From Candidatus Sumerlaeota bacterium (GTDB lineage Bacteria; Sumerlaeota; Sumerlaeia; SLMS01; JAHLLQ01), in the NCBI GenBank assembly GCA_021772755.1, contig JAJFLJ010000083.1, positions 1,416-65,415 of the forward strand: a stretch of DNA of 64,000 bases, read 5' to 3'. The notes beneath the pieces are model-generated. The model saw only the letters and a list, made by a program, of their open reading frames with translations, was not told the DNA's origin and searched no databases. Shown piece by piece: positions 33,547 through 64,000 of the stretch; within the stretch, counting starts at the first letter, position 1, and each line of letters begins with the position of its first letter. A program made the position numbers and the translations under genes.

Positions 33547-33622
33547 GGGGCTATAGCTCAGCTGGTAGAGCGCTGCGTTCGCAATGCAGAGGTCAGGGGT
33601 TCGACTCCCCTTAGCTCCACCA
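33547..33622 (+). tRNA. tRNA-Ala (anticodon CGC), 76 nt including encoded CCA
   Basis: Cloverleaf checked by hand: acceptor GGGGCUA/UAGCUCC with the G3:U70 Ala identity pair; D-stem GCUC/GAGC; anticodon loop UUCGCAA; T-arm AGGGG-UUCGACU-CCCCU. Confidence 0.9.
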
Positions 33623-34835: not shown

Positions 34836-35063
34836 TTATAGCGCAATCGCCCTGACCCTCGCCTCCACGGGCTCCAGTTCCGGCATCGCCAACGTCCCGT
34901 CAGCCCCTTCGTCCGGGTAGAAGCGCAGGTAGTGCAGTTCGGTCGTCTCCGTCGTGCTGTGTCCGAGCACCTTTGACAGCTTGAGGATCGGGTCGCCCTC
35001 GCGGGCCAGCGTCGCGGCAAACGTGTGCCGCAGGGTGTGGAGTGTCAGCGGACGGCGCAGCAT
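34836..35063 (-). pseudogene. Tyrosine recombinase (phage-type integrase) C-terminal remnant
   Basis: Catalytic C-terminus LHTLRHTFAATLAREG...LGHSTTETTELHYL (H-x-x-R ... H ... Y). Upstream in-frame sequence is unrelated and overlaps a repeat, so the gene is truncated. Confidence 0.65.
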
Positions 35064-35215
35064 CGCGCGTCCGGAGCGGCTGACGTTCGCTTGGGCGGGA
35101 CGCCCAAGCCACCCTTTGCGATTCTTCGCGCTCTCCGCGACTTTGCGTTGTGCTCTTTCTCCGCGAACTCTCGCCGTCCTCGGCGTCTCTGCGTACCGCT
35201 CTTTCCCACCGCCGC
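35060..35215. repeat. ~160-bp repeat, copy A (about 85% identical to 51875-52027)
   Basis: gcatcgcgcgtccggagcggctgacgttcgcttgggcgggacgcccaagccaccc...ctctgcgtaccgctctttccc aligns to copy B in the same orientation. A partial third copy (gggcggcccaagccgccct) lies at ~35247-35270. Confidence 0.6.
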
Positions 35216-41296: not shown

Positions 41297-42078
41297 CACG
41301 GCCCGTCCTCGAATTCGAGAACGTCGCGTTTTCCTACGGGCCGACGCCCGTGCTGCGGGACGTCGATCTTTCGGTGTGCGAGGGAGACTACCTCGCCATC
41401 GTCGGCCCCAACGGCGGCGGCAAGTCGACGCTGCTGAAGCTCGCGCTGGGCATCGCCCGCCCCGACAGCGGCACGGTGCGCGTGTTCGGCCAGCCGCCCC
41501 GCGGCGTCGTTCCCCGCGTGGGATACGTGCCGCAGCATCTCAGTTTCGACGCGCGCTATCCCATCACCGTGGACCACGTGGTGATGATGGGAATGCTGGA
41601 CCGGTTGCGCGCCGGCCCCTTCGGCCGCGCGGCGCGGATACGCGCCCGCGAGATGCTGGAGCGGGTCGGACTCGGCCACGCGGCGGGACGGCTCTTTCGC
41701 GAGCTGTCCGGCGGGGAGCGCCAGCGCGTTCTGCTGGCCCGTGCGCTGGTCTGCGATCCCGCGATGCTGCTGCTGGACGAACCGACGGCCAACATGGACC
41801 GCGAGCACGAGTCGCGCATGTACGCGATGCTGGGCGACCTCTGCGCGGGCATGACCATCTGCGTCGTGTCGCACAACGTGAACATCGTGACGCGCCACGC
41901 GTCCAAGCTCGCGTGCGTGAACCGGTCGTGTTCGCTTCATCCGCTCGAAGGCGTCGGCGACGGCCACATCCACGAGATCGTCGGCAGCGCGTTTCTGCGC
42001 ATTCACCACGACAGCGAGTGCGACGTCTTCGAACCCCACGCGCACGGTCACGCGCACACGCACGGCGGCGGCGAATGA
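41293..42078 (+). CDS. znuC: Zinc ABC transporter ATP-binding protein
   Basis: Walker A GPNGGGKST, LSGGERQR signature, Walker B LLLDEP. His-rich C-terminal tail HAHGHAHTHGGGE. ATGA overlap with znuA. Confidence 0.9.
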   Translation: MTRPVLEFENVAFSYGPTPVLRDVDLSVCEGDYLAIVGPNGGGKSTLLKLALGIARPDSGTVRVFGQPPRGVVPRVGYVPQHLSFDARYPITVDHVVMMGMLDRLRAGPFGRAARIRAREMLERVGLGHAAGRLFRELSGGERQRVLLARALVCDPAMLLLDEPTANMDREHESRMYAMLGDLCAGMTICVVSHNVNIVTRHASKLACVNRSCSLHPLEGVGDGHIHEIVGSAFLRIHHDSECDVFEPHAHGHAHTHGGGE

Positions 42079-42923
42079 CCGACTTCCTCCGCGCCCTGGG
42101 CGAGCACGCGTTCCTGCAGTACGCCGTGCTGGCGGCGCTCCTGGCGTCGCTGGCGTGCGGCGTCGTGGGCAGCTTCGTCGTCGTCCGCCGCATGACGTAC
42201 GTCGCCGGAGCCATCGCGCACTCGGTCCTGGGAGGCCTCGGCGCGACGGTCTGGCTGAATCGCGTTCACGGCATCGATTTCATCTCGCCGCTGGCGGGAG
42301 CGGCGGTCGGGGCCGTCGCCGCCGCCCTGGTCGCCGCGTGGCTGACGTATCGCGGGCGCGAGCGCGAGGACACCGTCCTGAGCGCCGTGTGGGCGGTCGG
42401 CATGGCGCTGGGGCTGGCGTTCATCGCCGCGTCGCCGGGATACCAGACCGACCTGATGAGCTATCTGTTCGGCAACATTCTGCTGGTGGGAAAGACGGAC
42501 CTCCTGGTCATCGCCGTTCTCGACGTGGCGGTCATCGCGCTGACGGTTCTCTTCCAGGAGAAGCTGCTGGCGATCGGTTTCGACGAGGAGTTCGCGCGTC
42601 TTCGCGGCGTGCGCGTGGAGGTCTACCGGCTGATGCTGCTGGTCATGACGGCGCTGACCGTCGTGATGCTGGTGCGTGTCGTGGGCATCGTGCTGGCGAT
42701 CGCGCTGCTGACGCTGCCGTCGGCGACGGCGCTGCATCTGTTCAAGCGCTTCAACGCGGCGATGATCGCGGCGGTCGCGATCTGCATGGCGACGACGGTC
42801 GGAGGGCTGGCTCTCAGCTACGGGCCGGACTGGCCGGCGGGGGCGACGATCGTGCTGCTCGCCGCCGGAGTCTACATCGCCGTGCGCACGGGAGCGGCCG
42901 TCGTCGCGCGGGCGCGGGCCTGA
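42075..42923 (+). CDS. znuB: Zinc ABC transporter permease
   Basis: ATGA overlap with znuC. About 8 TM helices with the family pattern (YLFGNILLVGKTDL...). Confidence 0.85.
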   Translation: MTDFLRALGEHAFLQYAVLAALLASLACGVVGSFVVVRRMTYVAGAIAHSVLGGLGATVWLNRVHGIDFISPLAGAAVGAVAAALVAAWLTYRGREREDTVLSAVWAVGMALGLAFIAASPGYQTDLMSYLFGNILLVGKTDLLVIAVLDVAVIALTVLFQEKLLAIGFDEEFARLRGVRVEVYRLMLLVMTALTVVMLVRVVGIVLAIALLTLPSATALHLFKRFNAAMIAAVAICMATTVGGLALSYGPDWPAGATIVLLAAGVYIAVRTGAAVVARARA

Positions 42924-42930
42924 GAGCGGG

Positions 42931-43302
42931 CTACTTCGCCTCCACGGCGTGGGCCTTCAGGTCCTTGAGCGACACGAACTCCAGCGCCGCCGCGTGCGTC
43001 GCCTCCAGCACCACCTGCGGCGCGACGCCGGCTTCGAGAGCCTCCACCCATCGCGACATGCAAAGGCACCAGCGGTCGCCGGGCACGAGACCGGGAAAGG
43101 CGAACTGCGGCATCGGCGTGCTCAGATCGTTTCCCCGCGACCGCGAAAACGCCAGGAAGTCCGCCGTCGCGACGATGCACACGATGTGCACGCCCATGTC
43201 ATCGCTTCCGGTGTCGCAGCATCCGTTGCGGTAGAACCCCGTCATGGGGTCCTGCGAACAGGACTTCAGATCCGTTCCAAGCACGTTCTTCGGGCGTCCC
43301 AT
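42931..43302 (-). CDS. DUF2237-family small protein (123 aa)
   Basis: MGRPKNVLGTDLKSCSQDPMTGFYRNGCCDTG...HIVCIVATADFLAF... matches the conserved-Cys DUF2237 pattern. Confidence 0.55.
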   Translation of the reverse strand: MGRPKNVLGTDLKSCSQDPMTGFYRNGCCDTGSDDMGVHIVCIVATADFLAFSRSRGNDLSTPMPQFAFPGLVPGDRWCLCMSRWVEALEAGVAPQVVLEATHAAALEFVSLKDLKAHAVEAK

Positions 43303-43418
43303 CGTCGACCTCTTCTCTCGAGCCTTCGCAAGACCGTAGTGCGAATCGCGTTCCGCGGCAATCCGAAACCGAAGGCCCGGCCAGGCTGATGCCGGAATCT
43401 GGTCGGCCTGTGTTCGCC

Positions 43419-43447
43419 GGCTGGCTGTCGGCTGGCTGTCGGCTGTC
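43419..43447. repeat. Short tandem repeat (ggctggctgtc x2 + ggctgtc)
   Basis: Direct 11-bp unit repeated about 2.6 times in an intergenic region. Confidence 0.3.
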
Positions 43448-43500
43448 GGGGGTTTCCGAAGGCGCGGCGCGCGCCTTGTTCCTTCAAGCGCAGCGCGCTT

Positions 43501-43670
43501 GGAGATGGTAGCCTTTGGTTGCCGCAGGCAACCAAAGGAACCCGAACACCACGGAACGAACCGCAGGGCGGTTCGACGATCTTCCCGACCCGGCCTGTCG
43601 AACCGCTCTGCGGTTCGGATCGTTGCCTGCACAACCTGCGGTAGCCGCTTGCGCGGCAACCGCAGGCTAT
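43501..43670. repeat. Cluster of four GC-rich hairpins (REP-like or structured RNA)
   Basis: cctttggttgc-CGCAG-gcaaccaaagg (11-bp stem); cgaaccgc-agg-gcggttcg; cgaaccgc-tct-gcggttcg; cctgcggt...accgcagg. The first unit, with flanks, recurs at 62277-62318. Confidence 0.45.
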
Positions 43671-43847
43671 CGACTCCAGGCGCGCTGCGCCTGTCTTGCG
43701 GACGAACGTCCGCGTGCATGGGAAGAGCGCCTGCGGCGTGCTCCCGACGCGGGAGCCGGGCCCCGCACACGACCGCTCGCAGCCGTCACGCGCGCCGACA
43801 CCGAAGGATGGCTCCGGGCAGGCGACTGAGGTACGCCAGAAGACGCG

Positions 43848-44309
43848 CTAGCCCTCCGAGCGCCACTGGCGGAACGTCCTGCGAAGTAGGTCCGCGCATT
43901 CCTCCGCGCGAACGCCCTCCACGACTTCCATCCGGTGGTTGAACCGCGGATGGCGAACGAGGTCCAGGTCACCGCTGCACGCCCCCCAGCGGGGATTTCG
44001 CGCGCCGAACACGAGCCGCGCGATGCGCGCGTGGACCAGGGCGCCCGCGCACATGGGGCAGGGCTCCAGCGTTACGTAGAGATCGGCCCCGTCCAGGCGC
44101 CAGTCGCCGGTCCGGTGCGCCGCCTGGCGCAGGGCGAGAATCTCGGCGTGCGCAGTGGGGTCCTTGAAGAGTTCCTTCCCGTCGTGGGCGCTTCCCAGAA
44201 CTTCGCCCTCCCGCACGATCAAGCAGCCGATGGGAACTTCGCCGCGTTCGGCGGCGAGCCGCGCCTGCCCGAGCGCCCGATCCATCCAATAGCCATCGTC
44301 CGGCGTCAT
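43848..44309 (-). CDS. tadA: tRNA-specific adenosine deaminase
   Basis: HAEILAL...LYVTLEPCPMCAGAL zinc-binding deaminase motifs. 153 aa. Confidence 0.9.
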   Translation of the reverse strand: MTPDDGYWMDRALGQARLAAERGEVPIGCLIVREGEVLGSAHDGKELFKDPTAHAEILALRQAAHRTGDWRLDGADLYVTLEPCPMCAGALVHARIARLVFGARNPRWGACSGDLDLVRHPRFNHRMEVVEGVRAEECADLLRRTFRQWRSEG

Positions 44310-49432: not shown

Positions 49433-50506
49433 ATGGCCAGAATCTTCTTCAGCATGTCGGGCGAGGGGCGCGGCCACGCGACCAGGGCGCGCTCCCTCGT
49501 CGAGCAGCTGCTGCGCGACGGCCACGAAATCCGCCTCTTCTGTCCCGGCGACGCGTACGACCTGCTGGCTCCCGTCTACGCCGACGGCCCGGTCCGCGTC
49601 GACCGCATCCCGGGCCTCGTCTTCCACTACAGCGCAAGCAAGCGGCTCGACACGGTTCGCACGGTGATCGGCGCGGCGAAGTACATCCTCGGAATGCCGG
49701 CCCTGATGCGGCGCCTCGGCGGCGTCTTTCGCTCCCGCCGCCCCGACCTGGTCGTCACCGACTTCGAACCGTCGCTGCCGCGTACCGCAAAGCGCCACGG
49801 CGTTCCCTTCATCAGCGTCAACCACCAGCACTTTCTCCTCGCCAACGACCTCTCCTCGCTCCCCTGGCGGCTGCGGCTCCACGCGTGGATCATGAGTCTC
49901 GTCGTCCGCCGCTACTACAGCGGCCAGGCCGCGACGGTGATCTCGCAGTTCTACTTTCCGCCGGTGAAGCCGCGATGGAAGGCGCGCACCACGCAGGCCG
50001 GCGTGCTCATGCGTCCCGAGATTCTCGGCGCGACGCCCGCGACCGGCGACCACATCGTCGTCTACGTGCGCAAGTTCGCGTCGGCGAACCTGATGCGCGC
50101 TCTCGCCGGCTGCGGACGCGAGGTGCGCATCTATGGCCTCGGCAAGCGCGACGACAGCGACAATCTCCGGTTTCGCGAAATCGACGACAGCGGATTCCTG
50201 CGCGACCTTGCCTCGGCGCAGGCACTGGTCTGTACCGCAGGGAACCAGCTCGTCGGCGAGGCGCTCTTCCTCGGCAAACCCGTCTTCGCCATGCCCGAAC
50301 CCGGCAACCACGAGCAGTACATCAACGCCCACTACCTGGCGGAGAGCGGAGCCGGCGAATGGGCCGACCTGGAGTTCGTCACGCCGGCGCAACTGCGCAG
50401 GTTCCTCGACCGCCTGGACGATTACCGCGGCCGCATCGACACCGCCCGCATGAACGGCAACGACGCTGCGCTGAAAGTCATCCGTGACTTCCTGGCGAAG
50501 ACGTAG
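49433..50506 (+). CDS. GT-B fold glycosyltransferase (MurG/GT28/MGT-like)
   Basis: N-terminal [22 protein letters not shown] (GxGH acceptor-domain motif) and C-terminal nucleotide-sugar domain ([22 protein letters not shown]). Confidence 0.75.
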
Positions 50507-50558
50507 GCGCGGATCGGAAGAAGAGAGGAAGAGCAAGAGAACGGTACGCAGAGGCGCG

Positions 50559-50609
50559 CCGGAGCTCCCCCGAGAAGGATTCAACGCAAAGACGCGGAGA
50601 ATCGCAAAG
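50559..50609. repeat. 51-bp direct repeat core, left copy (ccggagctcccccgagaaggattcaacgcaaagacgcggagaatcgcaaag)
   Basis: Near-identical copy at 51781-51831. Preceded by gaacggtacgcagaggcgcg, the inverse of the ctctgcgtaccg motif found at 35196, 51768 and 51996. Confidence 0.6.
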
Positions 50610-50625
50610 GTTCGCAAAGAACAGC

Positions 50626-51606
50626 TTGGAGCGTCCCAGCAACTCTACAAAGGGCAAGCCCTCCAAACGGGTATGCGAATTCCTCTGGACACTACCCCAT
50701 CGAAGGTGCGCTCCACTCTTGGGTATGTCTCCCATACCGAGCGCGATCCGATCCCTGACCGCTGTTTTTGCCGGCAAGCATCACCCGTCAACGTGGAAGG
50801 TGGTCGGATTCGGTTGGAAGCCGTATGTCTTTGGGCCTCTGGTTTGCGGCCTGGCGATCCCGATCATACAACAAATCCCTGCGCTGCCGCCACTTCCTTC
50901 GATCTGGGCGTCTCCCCGATTCACGCCGAACTCCTTCTTGGACTGGAAAGTATTCGTCGTCATTGGTGTGGGGCTGATGACCCGAAGGCGACTCGAAGCG
51001 CTCCGCTCGTCGGAAGTGCGGGTCCTCCCGGTCTGCCGAGCACAGATCACATTGGCGATTCTTCTCCAGCTGTCCCTGGCGTTTCTCCTCGCCGGGTTCG
51101 TAGCCCTGGTTGCCGACTGCGTTTCGAAATCCAACGCGCTATGGGCTCGTGACATTCCGTGGTGGAGACTCCCTCAGCGGTCTATGGCCTGCGTTCTTCT
51201 GGAGTCGCATAAGGGAAGCATGTCCATCTTTCAGGTACTTGCTGTGGCGTGTATCGAGATCGTCACGCAGCTCTGCCTCTTGATGGGCACTATGGGACTT
51301 CTGATACTTGGCTACGTCCTTCTTCAGACAGCAAGGAACCATTCCCTGGGTCTGGTCTACGTATTCGCGGCTTGCTTCGTATCGCTGTATGGCTGGGCAC
51401 GATTCCCCCTCCTGTTCCATCGCTCCGCCCGTATTCTCTATGACTACACCGGGGTGAACCCGTATGGATACTGGTACTACGCGTCCACCGACCTGCTGGT
51501 TCGGATGATACTGGCCACCCTTCACTGCCTGGCGGCATGGTATGCATGTCGTCATATGCACAAATGGATCTGGGCGGACAGACTTGGCGCTGCGCCAGGA
51601 CGGTGA
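50626..51606 (+). CDS. Low-GC polytopic membrane protein (326 aa; start may be internal), horizontally acquired
   Basis: GC about 55% versus about 68% nearby. At least eight hydrophobic helices. Bracketed by the direct and inverted repeat set. Confidence 0.5.
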   Translation: MERPSNSTKGKPSKRVCEFLWTLPHRRCAPLLGMSPIPSAIRSLTAVFAGKHHPSTWKVVGFGWKPYVFGPLVCGLAIPIIQQIPALPPLPSIWASPRFTPNSFLDWKVFVVIGVGLMTRRRLEALRSSEVRVLPVCRAQITLAILLQLSLAFLLAGFVALVADCVSKSNALWARDIPWWRLPQRSMACVLLESHKGSMSIFQVLAVACIEIVTQLCLLMGTMGLLILGYVLLQTARNHSLGLVYVFAACFVSLYGWARFPLLFHRSARILYDYTGVNPYGYWYYASTDLLVRMILATLHCLAAWYACRHMHKWIWADRLGAAPGR

Positions 51607-51780
51607 GGCGCGGTTCCGAGACATGATTGCGCGAGGTGGCGAGTGGATAAGGGGAGAGAGCGAGCAGGAAGGAAAAACCGGGTTCTTCTTCGCGAACCTT
51701 TGCGTGCTTGGCGCCTCTGCGTTTAGCTCTTTCTCTGCGACCTCCGCACCCTCAGCGCCTCTGCGTACCGCTTTTCCCTC

Positions 51781-51831
51781 CCGGAGCTCCCCTGAGAAGG
51801 ATTCAACGCAAAGACGCAGAGAATCGCAAAG
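51781..51831. repeat. 51-bp direct repeat core, right copy
   Basis: Matches 50559-50609 with 2 mismatches and 1 indel. The preceding 51680-51700 (cgcgaacctttgcg) is the inverse of 50600-50620 (cgcaaaggttcgcaaag). Confidence 0.6.
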
Positions 51832-51874
51832 AGCGCGTAGTGGACGAGCAGCGTGGCGTTGGCGTCTCGCCGAA

Positions 51875-52027
51875 GCATCGCGCGTCCGGAGCGGCTGACG
51901 TTCGCCTGGGCGGGGACGCCCAAGCCACCCTTCGCGCGCTTCGCGACTTCGCGTTGTGCTCATTCTCTGCGAGCTCTCGCCGTTCCTTTGCGCCTCTGCG
52001 TACCGCTTTTTCCGATCGCCGCTCCTC
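51875..52027. repeat. ~160-bp repeat, copy B (homologous to 35060-35215)
   Basis: Sits directly between the right 51-bp core and the 3' end of the PhzF gene. Confidence 0.6.
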
Positions 52028-59653: not shown

Positions 59654-61076
59654 TGGCGTCGAACGCGGCGAGCGCTTCGGCGCGCGCCTCCTTGTGATCG
59701 ACGACCGGCCCCGGATACGTCTCCCCCAGCGAGACGCCCGCGTCCTTCAACGCCGCGCGCGGCGCTTCCCACGGCGCGAAGAGCCACTTGACCGGCAGGC
59801 GCCCCAGTTCCGGCACCCACTTGCGCACGTAGTCCCCCTTCGGATCGAACTTCGCCCCCTGGAGCATCGGGTTAAAGATGCGAAAGTACGGCGCCGCGTC
59901 CGCGCCGCATCCCGCCGACCACTGCCAGCCCATCGTGTTGCTGGCGAGGTCCGCGTCCACCAGCGTGTCCCAGAACCACCGCGCTCCGCGAAGCCAGTGC
60001 AGCCGCAGGTGCTTGACGAGGAACGACGCGACGATCATCCGCACGCGGTTGTGCATCCATCCCGTCGCCCAGAGCTCGCGCATGCCGGCATCGACGATGG
60101 GGTATCCCGTTCTCCCCCGCTGCCACGCGCGCAGCAGCGCGTCGTCGGTTCGCCACGGAAAATCCAGGAACGTTTCGCGCAGCGGGTTCTCCGTAGTGTG
60201 CGGAAAGTGGAAGAGAAGATGGTGGCCGAACTCGCGCCATCCGATTTCGGCGAGGAAGGTCTGCGCCCCGGACTTCGACTTCGCGGCATCGTCGCGGCGT
60301 CGTGTCTCGTGCCAGACCTGGCGGGGCGTAATCTCGCCGAAGTGCAGATGGGGCGAGAGTCGCGAGGTTCCCGCCATGTCGGGCCGGTCGCGGTCCTCGT
60401 CATAGCCGGCAACGGCGTTCTTCAGAAACGCGCGGAGGTTCGCGTGCGCGCCCTTCTCGCCCGGCGACCAGGCGTCGGCGAATCCGCGATACCAGGGAAT
60501 CGCCGGCAGCAGAGCGAGATCGCGGAGCGGCAAGGATTCCGGCCACGCTTCCGGAGCGGGAATGCGGCGCGGCGCCGGCAGCGGTTCCGGCGGTTCGAAC
60601 TCGCGCGTGCAGTGTCTCCAGTAGGGCGTGAAGACCTGGAACGTTCCGCCGCTCTTCTTCTCGATGGCCCACGGTTCGAAGAGGAGCGCGCCGTTGAACG
60701 AAGCCGCTTCGGTGCCGTCGGTCTTCAGTGCGACGGCGACGGCTTCGTCGCGGGCGAGCCCCGCCGGTTCATACAGCCGGTTCCAGAAGACTGCACCCGC
60801 ACCGGTCTCGCGGACGAGCGCGCGGAGACACTCCGGCGAGTCGCCCGTGCGAACGATCAGACGCGATCCGCGATTCCGCAGTGCCGCGTCGAGTTCCGCC
60901 AGCGACCGGTCCAACCACCATCGCGACGCGCCGCCGGGTTGCCAGGGTTCCTCTTCGCGGGGCGCGTGAACGTAGACGGGAACGACGGGTCCGCCGCGCG
61001 CGACGGCTTCGCGCAGCGCCGCATTGTCGGCGATGCGCAGGTCGCGCCGAAACCAGACGATGGAGGGAGAGGGCAT
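59640..61076 (-). CDS. phr: Deoxyribodipyrimidine photolyase / cryptochrome family
   Basis: N-terminal alpha/beta domain (IVWFRRDLRIADNAAL), FAD-binding TSRLSPHLHFGEI, WREF, and C-terminal GWMHNRVRMIVASFL...WQW. Confidence 0.9.
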   Translation of the reverse strand: MPSPSIVWFRRDLRIADNAALREAVARGGPVVPVYVHAPREEEPWQPGGASRWWLDRSLAELDAALRNRGSRLIVRTGDSPECLRALVRETGAGAVFWNRLYEPAGLARDEAVAVALKTDGTEAASFNGALLFEPWAIEKKSGGTFQVFTPYWRHCTREFEPPEPLPAPRRIPAPEAWPESLPLRDLALLPAIPWYRGFADAWSPGEKGAHANLRAFLKNAVAGYDEDRDRPDMAGTSRLSPHLHFGEITPRQVWHETRRRDDAAKSKSGAQTFLAEIGWREFGHHLLFHFPHTTENPLRETFLDFPWRTDDALLRAWQRGRTGYPIVDAGMRELWATGWMHNRVRMIVASFLVKHLRLHWLRGARWFWDTLVDADLASNTMGWQWSAGCGADAAPYFRIFNPMLQGAKFDPKGDYVRKWVPELGRLPVKWLFAPWEAPRAALKDAGVSLGETYPGPVVDHKEARAEALAAFDAIRGK

Positions 61077-61120
61077 GACCCGCGATGTGCAAATCATGTG
61101 CCGCGCGGTCTTCGGGCGGG

Positions 61121-61158
61121 CGAAAAAGGAACGGGCCCGGAATCCTCCGGGCCCGTTC
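61121..61158 (-). terminator. Intrinsic terminator for the secreted-protein gene (minus strand)
   Basis: 12-bp GC stem gaacgggcccgg/ccgggcccgttc with a 6-nt loop, followed on the minus strand by CUUUUUC. 29 nt beyond the stop codon. Confidence 0.45.
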
Positions 61159-61186
61159 GGGAACAGCGATTCGAGCGGTCGTGCGA

Positions 61187-61918
61187 TCAGTACATTTCCC
61201 ACTCGCCGACCGTGGAGTTCAGGGGCGTGTGCTGCGTGCCGGAATGAATGTCGTCGAGGAAGAGGTTCACGTTCGTCAGGGTCGCGGTGGTTCCAAGGAT
61301 CGGGCGCAGGAAGACGCCCTCGTAGGCCGCCGCATCGCCGACGTCGCCGCCGTCGTACACGCCGTCGCCCAGCGCGATGCTAATGGCCCAGCTCGTAGAG
61401 GCGTTCGAATCGGTCTCGGTCGCGAAGTCCCAGTAGAGATACTGCCAATTCGGGCCTCCGGAGATCGTCTTCCAGACCATGTTCTCGTAGACTTCGTTGT
61501 CGCCGCTGCTGGTGGGGTCTTCGCGAAGACCGATGTTGATCTCCATGTCGCCGGCGGCGCCGTCATACAAGTAGTACAGACCAACACCGCCGGTGTCGGC
61601 GGGATCGGAGAGCAGATGGCGGTCGGAGAAATCGGTCATACGGATGAAGCTGGTCGCCGGGTCGTCAGTCGACCACTGGAAGACGATTTCCTGGGACTGG
61701 GTCCCCTGCGTACCGTCGCCCGGGCTGAGCTGATCGTTGGACTGGGTTGCGGAGGGGGCGCCGCTGGATCCCGCTTCGATACCGATGGTCGATCCGGAAA
61801 AACCAGGGCCGTTCAGGAGGTTCGTGTCGGCTGCTTCGAAGCTCAGATCGACGGCTGCGAAGCCCGATCCCGCGATGGAGGCGCAAAGCGCCGCCGCAAA
61901 AAGATTTTTGACTTTCAT
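61187..61918 (-). CDS. Secreted Gly/Ser/Thr/Asp-rich protein (243 aa), unknown function
   Basis: Signal peptide MKVKNLFAAALCASIAGSGFA. Low-complexity G/S/T/D-rich mature region. Slightly lower GC than surroundings. Confidence 0.55.
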   Translation of the reverse strand: MKVKNLFAAALCASIAGSGFAAVDLSFEAADTNLLNGPGFSGSTIGIEAGSSGAPSATQSNDQLSPGDGTQGTQSQEIVFQWSTDDPATSFIRMTDFSDRHLLSDPADTGGVGLYYLYDGAAGDMEINIGLREDPTSSGDNEVYENMVWKTISGGPNWQYLYWDFATETDSNASTSWAISIALGDGVYDGGDVGDAAAYEGVFLRPILGTTATLTNVNLFLDDIHSGTQHTPLNSTVGEWEMY

Positions 61919-62276
61919 GAGAGTGCTCCTTCTTGGGTGAGTGTAGCCTTGGGTTTCACCCTGCCGGTAGATCGGTCCACGCGCAAGCCCGAAGTTCCCA
62001 TTTCTAACGGAAATCTGTCCTTGTTCTCGCATTTCGCGGAAAGCGGGTGGCGCACCCTGAATCCCGAACGAATCGACGCGTGATCAACTGAAAACAGTGG
62101 ACTTGGACGGTTTCGGTCCTGGGCCGCGACCGGCGCCATCTGGTGGCGGAGGACGGGAGTTTCGCGCAGAGAGGCGAAGACGCGGAGAAGAGACGGGAGG
62201 CGGAGAGGGCGCGAAGGGGCGAGGATGTCGGCTGCGAGCGGGATCGGGGCGAGTATCCCTCCGGCGCATCGCGCCT

Positions 62277-62318
62277 GGAGATGTCAGCCTTGTGTTGCCG
62301 CAGGCAACCCGGGGAACC
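62277..62318. repeat. Second copy of the 42-bp palindromic element ggagatgNNagcctNgNgttgccgcaggcaaccNNgggaacc
   Basis: Matches 43501-43542 in 36 of 42 positions, including the core palindrome gttgcc-gca-ggcaac. Sits in the same position relative to flanking minus-strand genes. Confidence 0.5.
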
Positions 62319-62418
62319 GGATGTGTTGGAAAGAACAGCGTCGCTGTTCGACAAGCCTCTCGCGGACAACGACCAACGAAGAACGGTCAACCGCTCTTCC
62401 CGGGAGCGCCACGGACCG

Positions 62419-64000
62419 CTATTTGGCCTTCTTCTTCGCAGCCTTCTTGGCGGAGGACTTCTTCGCGGCCTTCTTGACGGATTTCTTGACCGCCTTCTTG
62501 GCGGCCTTCTTCCGTCCGCCGCCGGACTTCGCCTTGGCGGCGATCAGTTCCTTCGCCTGCTCCAGCGTGATGCTCTCCGGCGCTGTGTCCTTGGGCAGCG
62601 TGGCGTTGGTGTCGCCATCTGTGACATAGGGGCCGTATCGCCCGTCGAGCACCTGGATGGACTCGCCGAGGTCCTTGAGGACGGCCTTCTTCGCGGCGGC
62701 CCGGCGGCCCTGCTTGGGCTGGGCGAGGAGTTCCAGGGCGCGCTCCAGCGTGATCGTATAGGGGCTGTCCGGTTCCTTGATGGAGCGGAAATCGCGGTCC
62801 ATCTGGACGTAGGGGCCGTAGCGACCGTTGTTGGCGAGGATCGGGGTGCCGGTCTCGGGATGGGTGCCGAGTTCGCGGGGGAGGGAGAGCAGATGCAGGG
62901 CGGTTTCGAGATCGACGTCGTCCTCGGCCATGTCCTTTTCGAGCGAGGCGCGGCGGGGCTTCTCCTTGGAGTCGCCGGTTTCTCCGAGCTGGACGTAGGG
63001 CCCGAAGCGGCCCCGGGCGGCGTAGACGGTCAGGCCGGACTTCGGGTCGGTTCCGACGGCGCGGGGGCCTTCGGCCTTGCGGCGGATCATCTGTGCGGCG
63101 TCTTCGACGGTCAGATCGGCGGGAGCGATGTCGGGCGGCACGTTGGCGCGGTTGCCGTCGCCGCCCTCTCCGCGAACCAGGTAGGGGCCGTAGCGGCCGA
63201 TGCGCAGAACGATGGGCTCGGCGGTCTCGGGGTCTTCGCCCAGGGCGGTGTCGGGAAAGCCGATGCGCTCGACCTCGCGCTCGATGCGGCTGGCCAGACC
63301 GGTGCTGTCGGCTGCGGTGGCTCCGCTGGCGCCGTAGTAGAACTGGCGGACGTGATCGACCCAGTCGCGGGCGCCGTCGGCGATTTCGTCGAGTTCCTCT
63401 TCCATGCGCGCGGTGAACTTCAGATCGACGTAGTCGGCGAAGTGGCTGCGCATCAGGTTCGTCACGGCCATGGCGGTGAAGGTGGGCACCAGGGCGCCGC
63501 CGCTCTTGGCGCTGTTGGCATAGCCGCGGTTCTGGATGGTGGTGATGATGGAGGCGTACGTGGAGGGGCGGCCGATGCCCTCCTCTTCGAGCTTCTTGAC
63601 CAGAGCGGCTTCGGTGTAGCGGGCCGGCGGCATGGTGACGTGCTGGTTGGCCTTTACGTCGCCGAAAGTGGCCGGACCCGGTTCGCGGCCGATGGTCTGG
63701 CCTTCTCTGAGATCGGGAAGGATCGTTTCCTTGTCGCCGAGTTCCGCGGCGGGATCGTCGCTGCCCTCGACATAGGCGCGCAGGTACCCGGGGAAGAGGA
63801 TCTTCTTGCCGCTGACGGAGAACACCGCCGGGCCGCGCCGACAGGGGGCGGTGATTTCGATGGTGGTGCGAAGGACGTCGGCTTCGGGCATCTGGCTGGC
63901 GAGGGTGCGCTTCCAGATCAGCTCGTAGACGCGGGCCTCCTCCTTCGAGAGGTAGCGCTCGATGTCCTGGGGGCGGCGTCCGAACTGCGTCGGGCGGATC
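62419..64000 (-). CDS. topA: DNA topoisomerase I, 3' portion (gene continues beyond the window end)
   Basis: Repeated Zn-ribbon-like GRYGPYV/GRFGPYV modules and a Lys-rich C-terminal tail. In-frame continuation to base 64000 encodes ...ELIWKRTLASQMPEA, which is TopA core sequence. Confidence 0.9.
   Translation of the reverse strand, partial: IRPTQFGRRPQDIERYLSKEEARVYELIWKRTLASQMPEADVLRTTIEITAPCRRGPAVFSVSGKKILFPGYLRAYVEGSDDPAAELGDKETILPDLREGQTIGREPGPATFGDVKANQHVTMPPARYTEAALVKKLEEEGIGRPSTYASIITTIQNRGYANSAKSGGALVPTFTAMAVTNLMRSHFADYVDLKFTARMEEELDEIADGARDWVDHVRQFYYGASGATAADSTGLASRIEREVERIGFPDTALGEDPETAEPIVLRIGRYGPYLVRGEGGDGNRANVPPDIAPADLTVEDAAQMIRRKAEGPRAVGTDPKSGLTVYAARGRFGPYVQLGETGDSKEKPRRASLEKDMAEDDVDLETALHLLSLPRELGTHPETGTPILANNGRYGPYVQMDRDFRSIKEPDSPYTITLERALELLAQPKQGRRAAAKKAVLKDLGESIQVLDGRYGPYVTDGDTNATLPKDTAPESITLEQAKELIAAKAKSGGGRKKAAKKAVKKSVKKAAKKSSAKKAAKKKAK

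Follow-up and report, generated by a model that had tools for sequence, protein, structure and literature searches.

The GC-rich hairpins between tadA and the DUF2237 gene belong to a real, well-defined element of a familiar kind in a little-studied lineage. Three diverged copies (U1, U2 and U3) of one unit of about 100 nt, made of three hairpins, were found at two loci of the window, i.e., the whole 64-kb stretch of DNA that was analysed, and the structure of this unit is conserved despite sequence divergence, through compensatory changes. We interpret the units as a family of repetitive extragenic palindromes of the REP/REPIN (BIME) type, known here from these three units at two loci, and we give this interpretation an even chance of being correct. 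Three readings of this region had been proposed from the sequence only, with the hairpins as a REP family, as a structured RNA or as the binding site of a protein. The REP type is the best fit, in line with the extragenic position of the palindromes, their arrangement as one inverted dimer and one singlet, the NYAG tag and the compensatory stems; a curated structured RNA found no support, with no Rfam match.

Genomic setting and anatomy of the units

The G+C content of the window is 66.8%, and the best named relatives of its TopA protein are Sumerlaeota/Sumerlaeia bins, with an identity of 67% at most. Proteins identical to its DUF2237 and TopA proteins were found in a single NCBI contig only, and the DUF2237 protein also in the Logan assemblies of run SRR15505512, so that the collections searched contain no close sequenced relative of this organism. 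Locus 1 is the tadA-DUF2237 spacer (43303-43847), which measures 545 bp, in agreement with the 540 bp or so initially given. Locus 2 is the spacer between topA and a gene for a secreted protein (61919-62418, 500 bp). The flanking genes are:

43848-44309, minus strand: tadA (NCBIfam TadA equivalog, 167 bits for a cut-off of 150, plus Pfam deaminase domains), transcriptionally upstream of the dimer
42931-43302, minus strand: DUF2237 gene (PF09996), downstream of the dimer, its start 179 nt from U1
62419-63999, minus strand: 3' part of topA, the gene upstream of U2
61187-61918, minus strand: gene for a secreted protein of 243 aa, with no Pfam or NCBIfam match, downstream of U2, its start 339 nt from U2

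The DUF2237 gene is convergent with znuABC, and the gene for the 243-aa protein has a good ribosome-binding site. Both loci are thus spacers between co-directional minus-strand genes, extragenic and close to gene 3' ends, and it had been rightly seen that both copies follow the 3' end of one minus-strand gene (tadA, topA) and precede the start of the next. The distance to the upstream stop codon is 61 nt for U2 (topA) and 151 nt for U3 (tadA), and the units are found in both orientations with respect to transcription. These two spacers are unusually long, and the hairpin units would explain this length. The units and their parts are located as follows:

43482-43582, plus strand: U1, comprising hairpins A, B and C, as the left dimer arm; covariance model score 120.9 bits (as a training sequence); three-hairpin fold, z -6.2
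43485-43501, plus strand: U1 hairpin A, CAAGCGC-AGC-GCGCTTG, extendable to 10 bp (43482-43504) with one G-T pair
43508-43511, plus strand: U1 tag GTAG (REP-like), directly 5' of hairpin B
43512-43538, plus strand: U1 hairpin B, perfect 12-bp stem with a GCA loop
43557-43575, plus strand: U1 hairpin C, 8-bp stem with an AGG loop
43592-43696, minus strand: U3, inverted right arm of the dimer; full-length match to a model built without U3 (66.7 bits, E 5.2e-15); fold, z -5.0
43599-43617, minus strand: U3 hairpin C, 8 bp, with an alternative pairing with U1 hairpin C as 21-nt arms
43635-43666, minus strand: U3 hairpin B; on the unit strand, a stem of 14 bp interrupted by one T-T mismatch, with the loop GCAA; ATAG (43670-43667) lies 5' of the stem
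43677-43693, minus strand: U3 hairpin A, which reads CAGGCGC-AGC-GCGCCTG on the unit strand and forms a 17-bp closing stem with U1 hairpin A when the whole dimer is folded
62258-62357, plus strand: U2, the solo copy, which follows the topA stop codon at a distance of 61 nt
62261-62277, plus strand: U2 hairpin A
62284-62287, plus strand: U2 tag TCAG
62288-62314, plus strand: U2 hairpin B, with two G-T pairs and one mismatch
62333-62349, plus strand: U2 hairpin C
43459-43477: extra hairpin left of the dimer, 8 bp, with no homology to the unit
43698-43713: extra hairpin right of the dimer, GCGGACG-AA-CGTCCGC, with no homology to the unit

From 5' to 3', each unit is composed of hairpin A, a GGAG linker with a terminal NYAG tag, hairpin B, 17-18 nt, and hairpin C. 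Hairpin A has a GC-rich core of 7 bp (up to 10 bp in U1) and a 3-nt loop. The A-B linker begins with a conserved TGGAG, followed by five bases that end in the tetranucleotide GTAG (U1), TCAG (U2) or ATAG (U3), so that the exact GTAG tag is present in one unit out of three; no further strong hairpin with this tag was found in the window besides U1. The tag stands directly 5' of hairpin B, and what is invariant at this place is the final AG together with the CC/GG foot of the stem. Hairpin B starts right after this AG with CC...GG and has a stem of 12 bp with a GCA loop in U1 and U2, and of 14 bp with a GCAA loop in U3. In all three units it is a short stem-loop palindrome as REPs are, 27-32 nt long with a loop of 3-4 nt. 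The poorly conserved B-C spacer (17-18 nt) is followed by hairpin C, with a stem of 7-8 bp and a 3-nt loop, and then by AC. The spacing between hairpins is constant to within 1 nt among units.

At locus 1, U1 and U3 face each other via their C hairpins, with their tags outward and 96 nt between their B hairpins, and form a dimer of about 215 bp in total. The four perfect or near-perfect GC-rich hairpins described from the letters (43512-43538, 43557-43575, 43599-43617 and 43635-43666) are all present, but a fifth and a sixth, A (43485-43501) and A' (43677-43693), had been overlooked.

Kinship, copy number and conserved pairing

Recurrence of the first hairpin 19 kb away is real. It had been reported as 36 identical positions of 42, and the ungapped comparison of 43501-43542 with 62277-62318 gives 35. 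The extent of 42 bp was also too short: U1 and U2 align over 66 nt at 80% identity (blastn E 2.9e-12 within the window), and over about 100 nt once structure is included. Likewise, the hairpins of the supposed array do exist, but they make up one unit repeated in inverted orientation, with a blastn E-value of 7.8e-7 between U1 and U3. A covariance model trained on U1 and U2 indeed recovered U3 from the 64-kb window (66.7 bits, E 5.2e-15). Elsewhere in the window, this model gave nothing above 11 bits except reverse-strand echoes of the palindromes, and its best score in 751 kb of unrelated genomic loci was 14.8 bits. Searches of the window with nhmmer at maximum sensitivity, with sub-motifs allowing mismatches and with the covariance model with filters off returned these three units only. 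Pairwise identity between units is about 72% (63-71% in a stricter end-to-end alignment). The units are old and diverged, not recent copies.

Run SRR15505512 yielded two Logan contigs that match the window at 100% identity. The first stops at 43510, 1 nt short of hairpin B of U1, and the second passes uninterrupted through U2, a continuity which argues against near-identical copies of U2 elsewhere. The flanks of loci 1 and 2 are mutually unrelated, their alignment being no better than that of shuffled sequences, and on this ground the suspected trace of a partner unit next to U2 was discarded. The second repeat family of the window shows only a weak compositional resemblance to the unit.

Perfect hairpins of at least 8 bp number about 19 in 64 kb, and four of them lie within 43459-43617. 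The dimer folds either as six local hairpins or as one long arm-to-arm structure closed by the 17-bp A:A' stem, with a z-score of -8.9 for RNA on either strand, and with -84.4 kcal/mol (z -11.9) for DNA. Folded singly, U1 and U3 reached z-scores of -4.5 to -6.2, and U2 reached -1.7 (plus strand) and -2.8 (minus strand). This weak fold of U2 is due to the lower part of its B stem, which contains two G-T pairs and a mismatch.

Covariation across copies, which the sequence-only reading had suggested as a check, was indeed observed. In a model-based alignment of the three units, hence fitted to the structure and limited to three sequences, 95.1% of stem cells are standard pairs and 4 of the 27 pairs are changed on both sides, a number reached by 2 of 500 column shuffles. 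Such two-sided changes can also be imitated by intrastrand templating in palindromic DNA. Compensatory changes are present in all three stems, and sliding the partner by 1-3 columns reduced pairing to 27-43%, with 0-1 two-sided pairs. RNAalifold, applied to an independent MAFFT alignment, predicted the identical three helices. Differences between units cluster in the loops and in the B-C spacer, with preservation of the stems, of the TGGAG...AGCC linker and of the distances between hairpins.

Alternative explanations for the units

Such conservation of pairing may also be expected of a cis-acting RNA structure that is not mobile and is selected by the host (as a stabiliser, attenuator or insulator in the 3' UTR between adjacent co-directional genes), derived from a local or segmental duplication and maintained because its folding is selected. 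We regard this explanation as rather unlikely, although it is the one that survives best among the alternatives. It would account for compensatory changes that maintain all three stems at about 72% identity, for the position of both loci between co-directional genes, 61 and 151 nt past a stop codon, and for units that are old and diverged rather than recently copied. The central hairpin of an outside candidate (L121, see below) also resembles a bidirectional terminator, with T-runs on both sides. By contrast, an RNA acting in cis is difficult to reconcile with units in both orientations relative to transcription, and with the lower B stem of U2, which in the mRNA sense would hold A-C mismatches in place of G-U pairs.

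Termination and conservation downstream of topA also bear on this explanation. Rho-independent terminators are, as the units are, GC-rich stem-loops shortly after stop codons, but the units differ from them by the lack of a T-run. The type does occur in the window, where a canonical minus-strand terminator (61129-61158, then TTTTT) stands in contrast with the units, none of whose hairpins is followed by a U-tract. No hairpin plus T-run site was detected in 43200-43950, and the scan of 61850-62500 gave one weak 5-bp site, which is the expected chance rate. The units were consequently rejected as intrinsic terminators, with no T-run after any hairpin. Conservation in related genomes, the other check envisaged initially, was not found in the orthologous spacers of the nearest available relatives. 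The topA spacers of three of them (TopA 67%, 66% and 63% identical) were examined and the unit was absent from all three, which speaks against a cis-acting RNA. In GCA_964580585.1 (TopA 67% identical, GC 53%), a classical terminator follows topA; in the two relatives with 71% GC (TopA 66% and 63% identical), other, unrelated GC-rich hairpins do.

A MITE with terminal inverted repeats is unlikely. The 215-bp dimer would then be a whole element moved by the DDE transposase of a related insertion sequence, and U2 the remnant of a half-element. The outer 36 nt of the dimer arms could indeed serve as terminal inverted repeats, its length, about 215 bp, is usual for MITEs, and the sequence flanking the dimer is unrelated. 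However, the two arms are no more alike (about 72%) than U1 and the distant U2 are (about 72%), which indicates that the dimer consists of two old units and not of one palindromic element. Moreover, no recognisable target-site duplication or direct repeat borders the dimer, and the window yielded neither a transposase nor an insertion sequence that carries ends of this kind: among its approximately 40 ORFs scanned with Pfam, there was no Y1/HUH transposase (PF01797-type) nor any other transposase.

Wider collections yielded one lead. No blastn match to the unit was obtained in plasmid and phage collections, and viral contigs gave chance matches only. A 16-base pattern had at least 108 matches in genome contigs, and among those listed all were chance; a 22-base consensus had none in JGI metagenome contigs. 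A 19-base pattern of the B core, AGCC-N4-GTTGCCGCAGGCAAC, was found at 13 loci of metagenome contigs, of which 12 are plainly chance and one, L121, is of uncertain homology. This soil metagenome contig was assigned to Pyrinomonadaceae (Acidobacteriota) by kinase homologues that are 89-91% identical. The B-core pattern is located at 669-691; a full-length model match of 38.7 bits lies at 545-649, where it does not overlap the pattern, and a match of 28.1 bits at 616-718 on the other strand. Together, 545-718 forms an inverted dimer A-B-C-B'-A' with a single, shared central C hairpin, which is flanked by T-runs on both sides and located between convergent ORFs. Stem B' has 12 bp, closes a GCA loop and shares the AG|CC foot of the window units, and the A loops are GAA.

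L121 and the window units share hairpin order, sizes and spacing, and the core AG|CC...GTTGCC-GCA-GGCAAC...GG. When the two L121 units were added to the alignment, 95.5% of stem cells paired and 14 of 27 pairs showed double changes. Outside hairpin B, the primary sequence of L121 is not significantly similar to that of U1-U3 (z of 2.5 at most), a sequence profile of the L121 units did not recover the window units, and a search of about 75 kb of DNA from related Pyrinomonadaceae revealed no additional copy. At the loci orthologous to L121, synteny is lost 15 nt before the element. We consider L121 as a lead, of uncertain homology, and not as evidence for a family. It is improbable that the A-B-C module constitutes an undescribed family of structured elements across phyla (the Sumerlaeota-like genome and the Pyrinomonadaceae contig), which might be either a new REPtron-like mobile system with its own group of HUH transposases or a selected RNA or DNA module, e.g., a bidirectional terminator-insulator.

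With only three copies, of low identity, and nothing conserved in relatives, the units could also be the relic of an old duplication or of templated repair of a palindrome, devoid of present function or mobility. Palindromes can self-correct by intrastrand templating and so mimic compensatory change, which counts in favor of such a relic. We nevertheless hold this explanation to be distinctly unlikely, in view of differences strongly clustered in the loops and the B-C spacer, with stems and GGAG...AGCC linker kept, and of an inter-hairpin spacing conserved to within 1 nt.

A family of genes for small trans-acting RNAs, read from the unit-forward strand, which in the case of U1 and U2 is antisense to the genes on either side, is very unlikely. 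This strand contains four G-T (G-U) pairs for one A-C, which hints that it may be the folding strand, but the 4:1 count is not significant; the GCAA loop of U3 hairpin B is of the GNRA type and would suit an RNA. No site resembling a promoter or a terminator adjoins any unit, and no sigma-70-like consensus above chance was seen beside them. A convergent, near-abutting pair of sRNA genes would moreover be unusual. The absence of an Rfam match points in the same direction: at gathering score, Rfam 15 identified only a tRNA in the window, and a search of 43300-43850 with E-values up to 10 gave nothing near any gathering score. An identity as a curated structured RNA has no support in these results.

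Lastly, operator sites of a dimeric DNA-binding protein regulating the downstream genes (half-sites GTTGCC-N3-GGCAAC and CGAACCGC-N3-GCGGTTCG) are highly improbable, since the invariant palindrome cores and the location of U1 and U2 upstream of the next start codons, by 179 and 339 nt, have to be set against these long distances, a conserved region of about 100 nt and outer stem positions which covary rather than stay conserved, a covariation indicative of base pairing rather than of sequence read-out.

A protein-coding nature was rejected as well. The presumption that the R-rich ORFs predicted here are artefacts is supported: ORFs that cross the units have a GC3 of 0.54-0.70, vs 0.84-0.88 in the neighboring, real genes, and the 147-aa ORF across the dimer had no match in an exhaustive HMMER search of 1.84 billion representative proteins. 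Other candidates were set aside by inference from anatomy only, namely a retron ncRNA (no reverse transcriptase nearby), an integron attC site (the core sites do not fit), a CRISPR array and a riboswitch or leader.

The REP/REPIN reading and known repeat systems

We thus return to repetitive extragenic palindromes of the REP/REPIN type as the preferred reading. Its core element would be hairpin B with the NYAG tag, and A and C may be accessory hairpins in a composite unit of about 100 nt. REPs are often paired in inverse orientation as BIMEs, and the last two positions of the tag matter most in the RAYT systems that were tested (PMC8266576). By analogy with this literature and with REP/BIME elements in general, hairpin B and its tag would be read by a RAYT-type transposase. 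The units may have spread, in the past or at present, as single-stranded DNA hairpins, via an HUH tyrosine transposase of the RAYT/TnpA-REP type, presumably encoded elsewhere in the genome. They would be transcribed within the tadA and topA 3' regions, where stable stem-loops might protect mRNA 3' ends and damp read-through into the DUF2237 and secreted protein genes, as do REP/BIME elements elsewhere.

According to Bertels and Rainey, the inverted doublet, or REPIN, is the replicative unit, and singlets are its decayed remnants (PMC3116915). Locus 1 fits an HH dimer, or REPIN, with a structured spacer, and U2 a decayed singlet. In line with the prediction of the REPIN model, the fold of the singlet U2 is weak (z -1.7/-2.8, vs -5 to -6 for the dimer arms; PMC3116915). 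The inverted dimer folds into one long structure (-84.4 kcal/mol, z -11.9), and there is no competing identity, with neither coding signal nor Rfam family, which also favors the REP/REPIN reading. Against it, the defining property of REPs is a high copy number (tens to hundreds, dispersed through the genome), and the family is documented here by three units at two loci. Their identity of about 72% is also low if the family were still spreading, and a unit of about 100 nt with three hairpins is longer than the classical REP, of 20-50 nt with one hairpin. GTAG, found in one of three units, is a further difference from the GTAG-tagged REPs. The contig that passes through U2 likewise counts against this reading, as do the failure to find a Y1/HUH transposase among the approximately 40 ORFs scanned, although REPs usually have a cognate RAYT gene, often flanked by the repeats, and the absence of the unit from the orthologous spacers of the nearest available relatives, from plasmids and phages and, apart from the ambiguous L121, from the JGI metagenome scans.

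If the whole genome confirms this reading, the range of REP/REPIN-type elements would come to include a candidate phylum (Sumerlaeota/BRC1-like) that is represented almost exclusively by metagenome bins, and a composite three-hairpin format would be added to REP architectures. No long-standing open question is touched. More practically, recognition of the unit would remove spurious R-rich ORFs from gene calls. Such repeats are also candidate break points of assemblies, as illustrated by the short-read contig that ends 1 nt before hairpin B, and the units mark sites where read-through from tadA to DUF2237 and from topA to the secreted protein gene may be modulated.

Correia/NEMIS, ERIC/IRU, the pneumococcal BOX and RUP are palindromic, MITE-like repeats of about 100-200 bp. 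The elements described here resemble them in their size (100-215 bp), in their modular sub-elements, comparable to boxA-B-C, in the long hairpin formed when transcribed and in their intergenic location. They differ from them by a unit devoid of target-site duplication, by the absence of sequence similarity and by their occurrence in other phyla.

Closer counterparts are found among the GTAG families of Di Nocera et al. (2013), which have stems of 6-13 bp, loops of 2-4 nt, degenerate tags, G-T pairs and alternative complementary stem residues (PMC3733652). These families comprise singletons and dimers, the HH dimers having their tags outward and spacers of 20-100 bp, some with their own stem-loops, and they favor the spacers of co-directional or convergent genes (PMC3733652). 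Also known are composite repeats that combine a degenerate GTAG unit and an unrelated stem-loop (PMC3733652). Like these composite repeats and the "double palindromic" TIR families near RAYT/TIRYT genes (Di Nocera et al., 2013), our units combine a REP-like hairpin with an extra stem-loop outside the tag, and such repeats likewise form dimers or clusters; unlike our units, they were defined beside transposase genes and in hundreds of copies, and they share no sequence similarity with the unit. With the GTAG-tagged REP/BIME/REPIN elements, our units have in common a GC-rich palindrome that is extragenic and has a loop of very few bases, a tag with a final AG immediately 5' of the stem, the occurrence both as a singlet and as an inverted dimer whose tags point outward on either side of a structured spacer (96 nt here, within the 20-100 bp of those elements), alternative complementary stem residues, G-T pairs and a location in the spacers of co-directional genes.

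Interval between topA and the photolyase gene

The window interval 61187-62418, between topA and the photolyase gene, holds a 500-bp spacer with U2 (the solo copy of the three-hairpin A-B-C unit) and a gene for a secreted protein of no family, whose GC3 is lower. By contrast, in a relative with 72% GC and a TopA 66% identical to that of the window (locus L127, 2146-2230), topA is followed by the photolyase gene after only 85 nt, and the comparison of the two loci suggests that the extra segment of the window is an insertion. The following feature lies beside this interval:

61129-61158, minus strand: canonical intrinsic terminator, a 13-bp GC-rich stem followed by TTTTT, after the secreted protein gene just named (243 aa)

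Classical terminators are thus in use in this organism, and this one is unlike the hairpins of the three units (U1-U3). Immediately upstream of U2, the plus strand carries a long purine-rich tract with GAGA and GGAG words (62140-62235), which weakly resembles the second repeat family described below (z about 3.7). The C-terminus of TopA is a Lys/Ala-rich tail (…KKAAKKAVKKSVKKAAKKSSAKKAAKKKAK), encoded at 62419-62520 (minus strand) and common to the Sumerlaeota-like relatives.

Two Logan short-read contigs, both from run SRR15505512, match the window with 100% identity:

41699-43510: contig L001, which stops 1 nt short of U1 hairpin B
60960-63717: contig L126, crossing U2 intact

The tadA-DUF2237 spacer, which contains U1, also holds an 11-nt tandem repeat 35 nt upstream of this unit (CGGCTGGCTGT x 2.5, 43418-43445, 100% matches).

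A second repeat family and a recombinase remnant

A second family, unrelated to the U1-U3 units, is built on words such as CGCAAAG, CGCAGAG and GCGGAGA:

35053-35215, 50520-50620 and 51690-52022: second-family repeats
34839-35050, minus strand: truncated tyrosine recombinase C-terminus (…RPLTLHTLRHTFAATLAREG…)
33547-33622: tRNA-Ala(CGC), close to the recombinase remnant

Copies 35053-35215 and 51868-52022, in direct orientation with 16.8 kb between them, are 85-94% identical, and 50559-50609 matches 51781-51831 at 96% identity. Related tracts (50520-50620 and 51690-51830) bracket an ORF of low GC3 (50488-51603), for which no Pfam match was found. The truncated recombinase directly adjoins a copy of this family, and the two together look like the scar of an element integrated near a tRNA gene.

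Comparison with Pyrinomonadaceae loci

In L121, a Pyrinomonadaceae metagenome contig, and in L129-L134, together covering three Pyrinomonadaceae lineages, synteny is lost at the identical base, after GGTTTAATCCC, 40 nt past the stop of a Ser/Thr kinase-TPR gene that is 89-91% identical. Integrase fragments lie past this break in L129, and the site has the appearance of a hot spot for recombination or attachment. L121 also carries an inverted dimer:

L121 (JGI Ga0137403_10054836), 545-718: inverted dimer between convergent ORFs, with a terminator-like central hairpin

This dimer shows a likeness, rather than an established homology, to the window units, with which it shares the A-B-C hairpin order, the spacing and the core of hairpin B.
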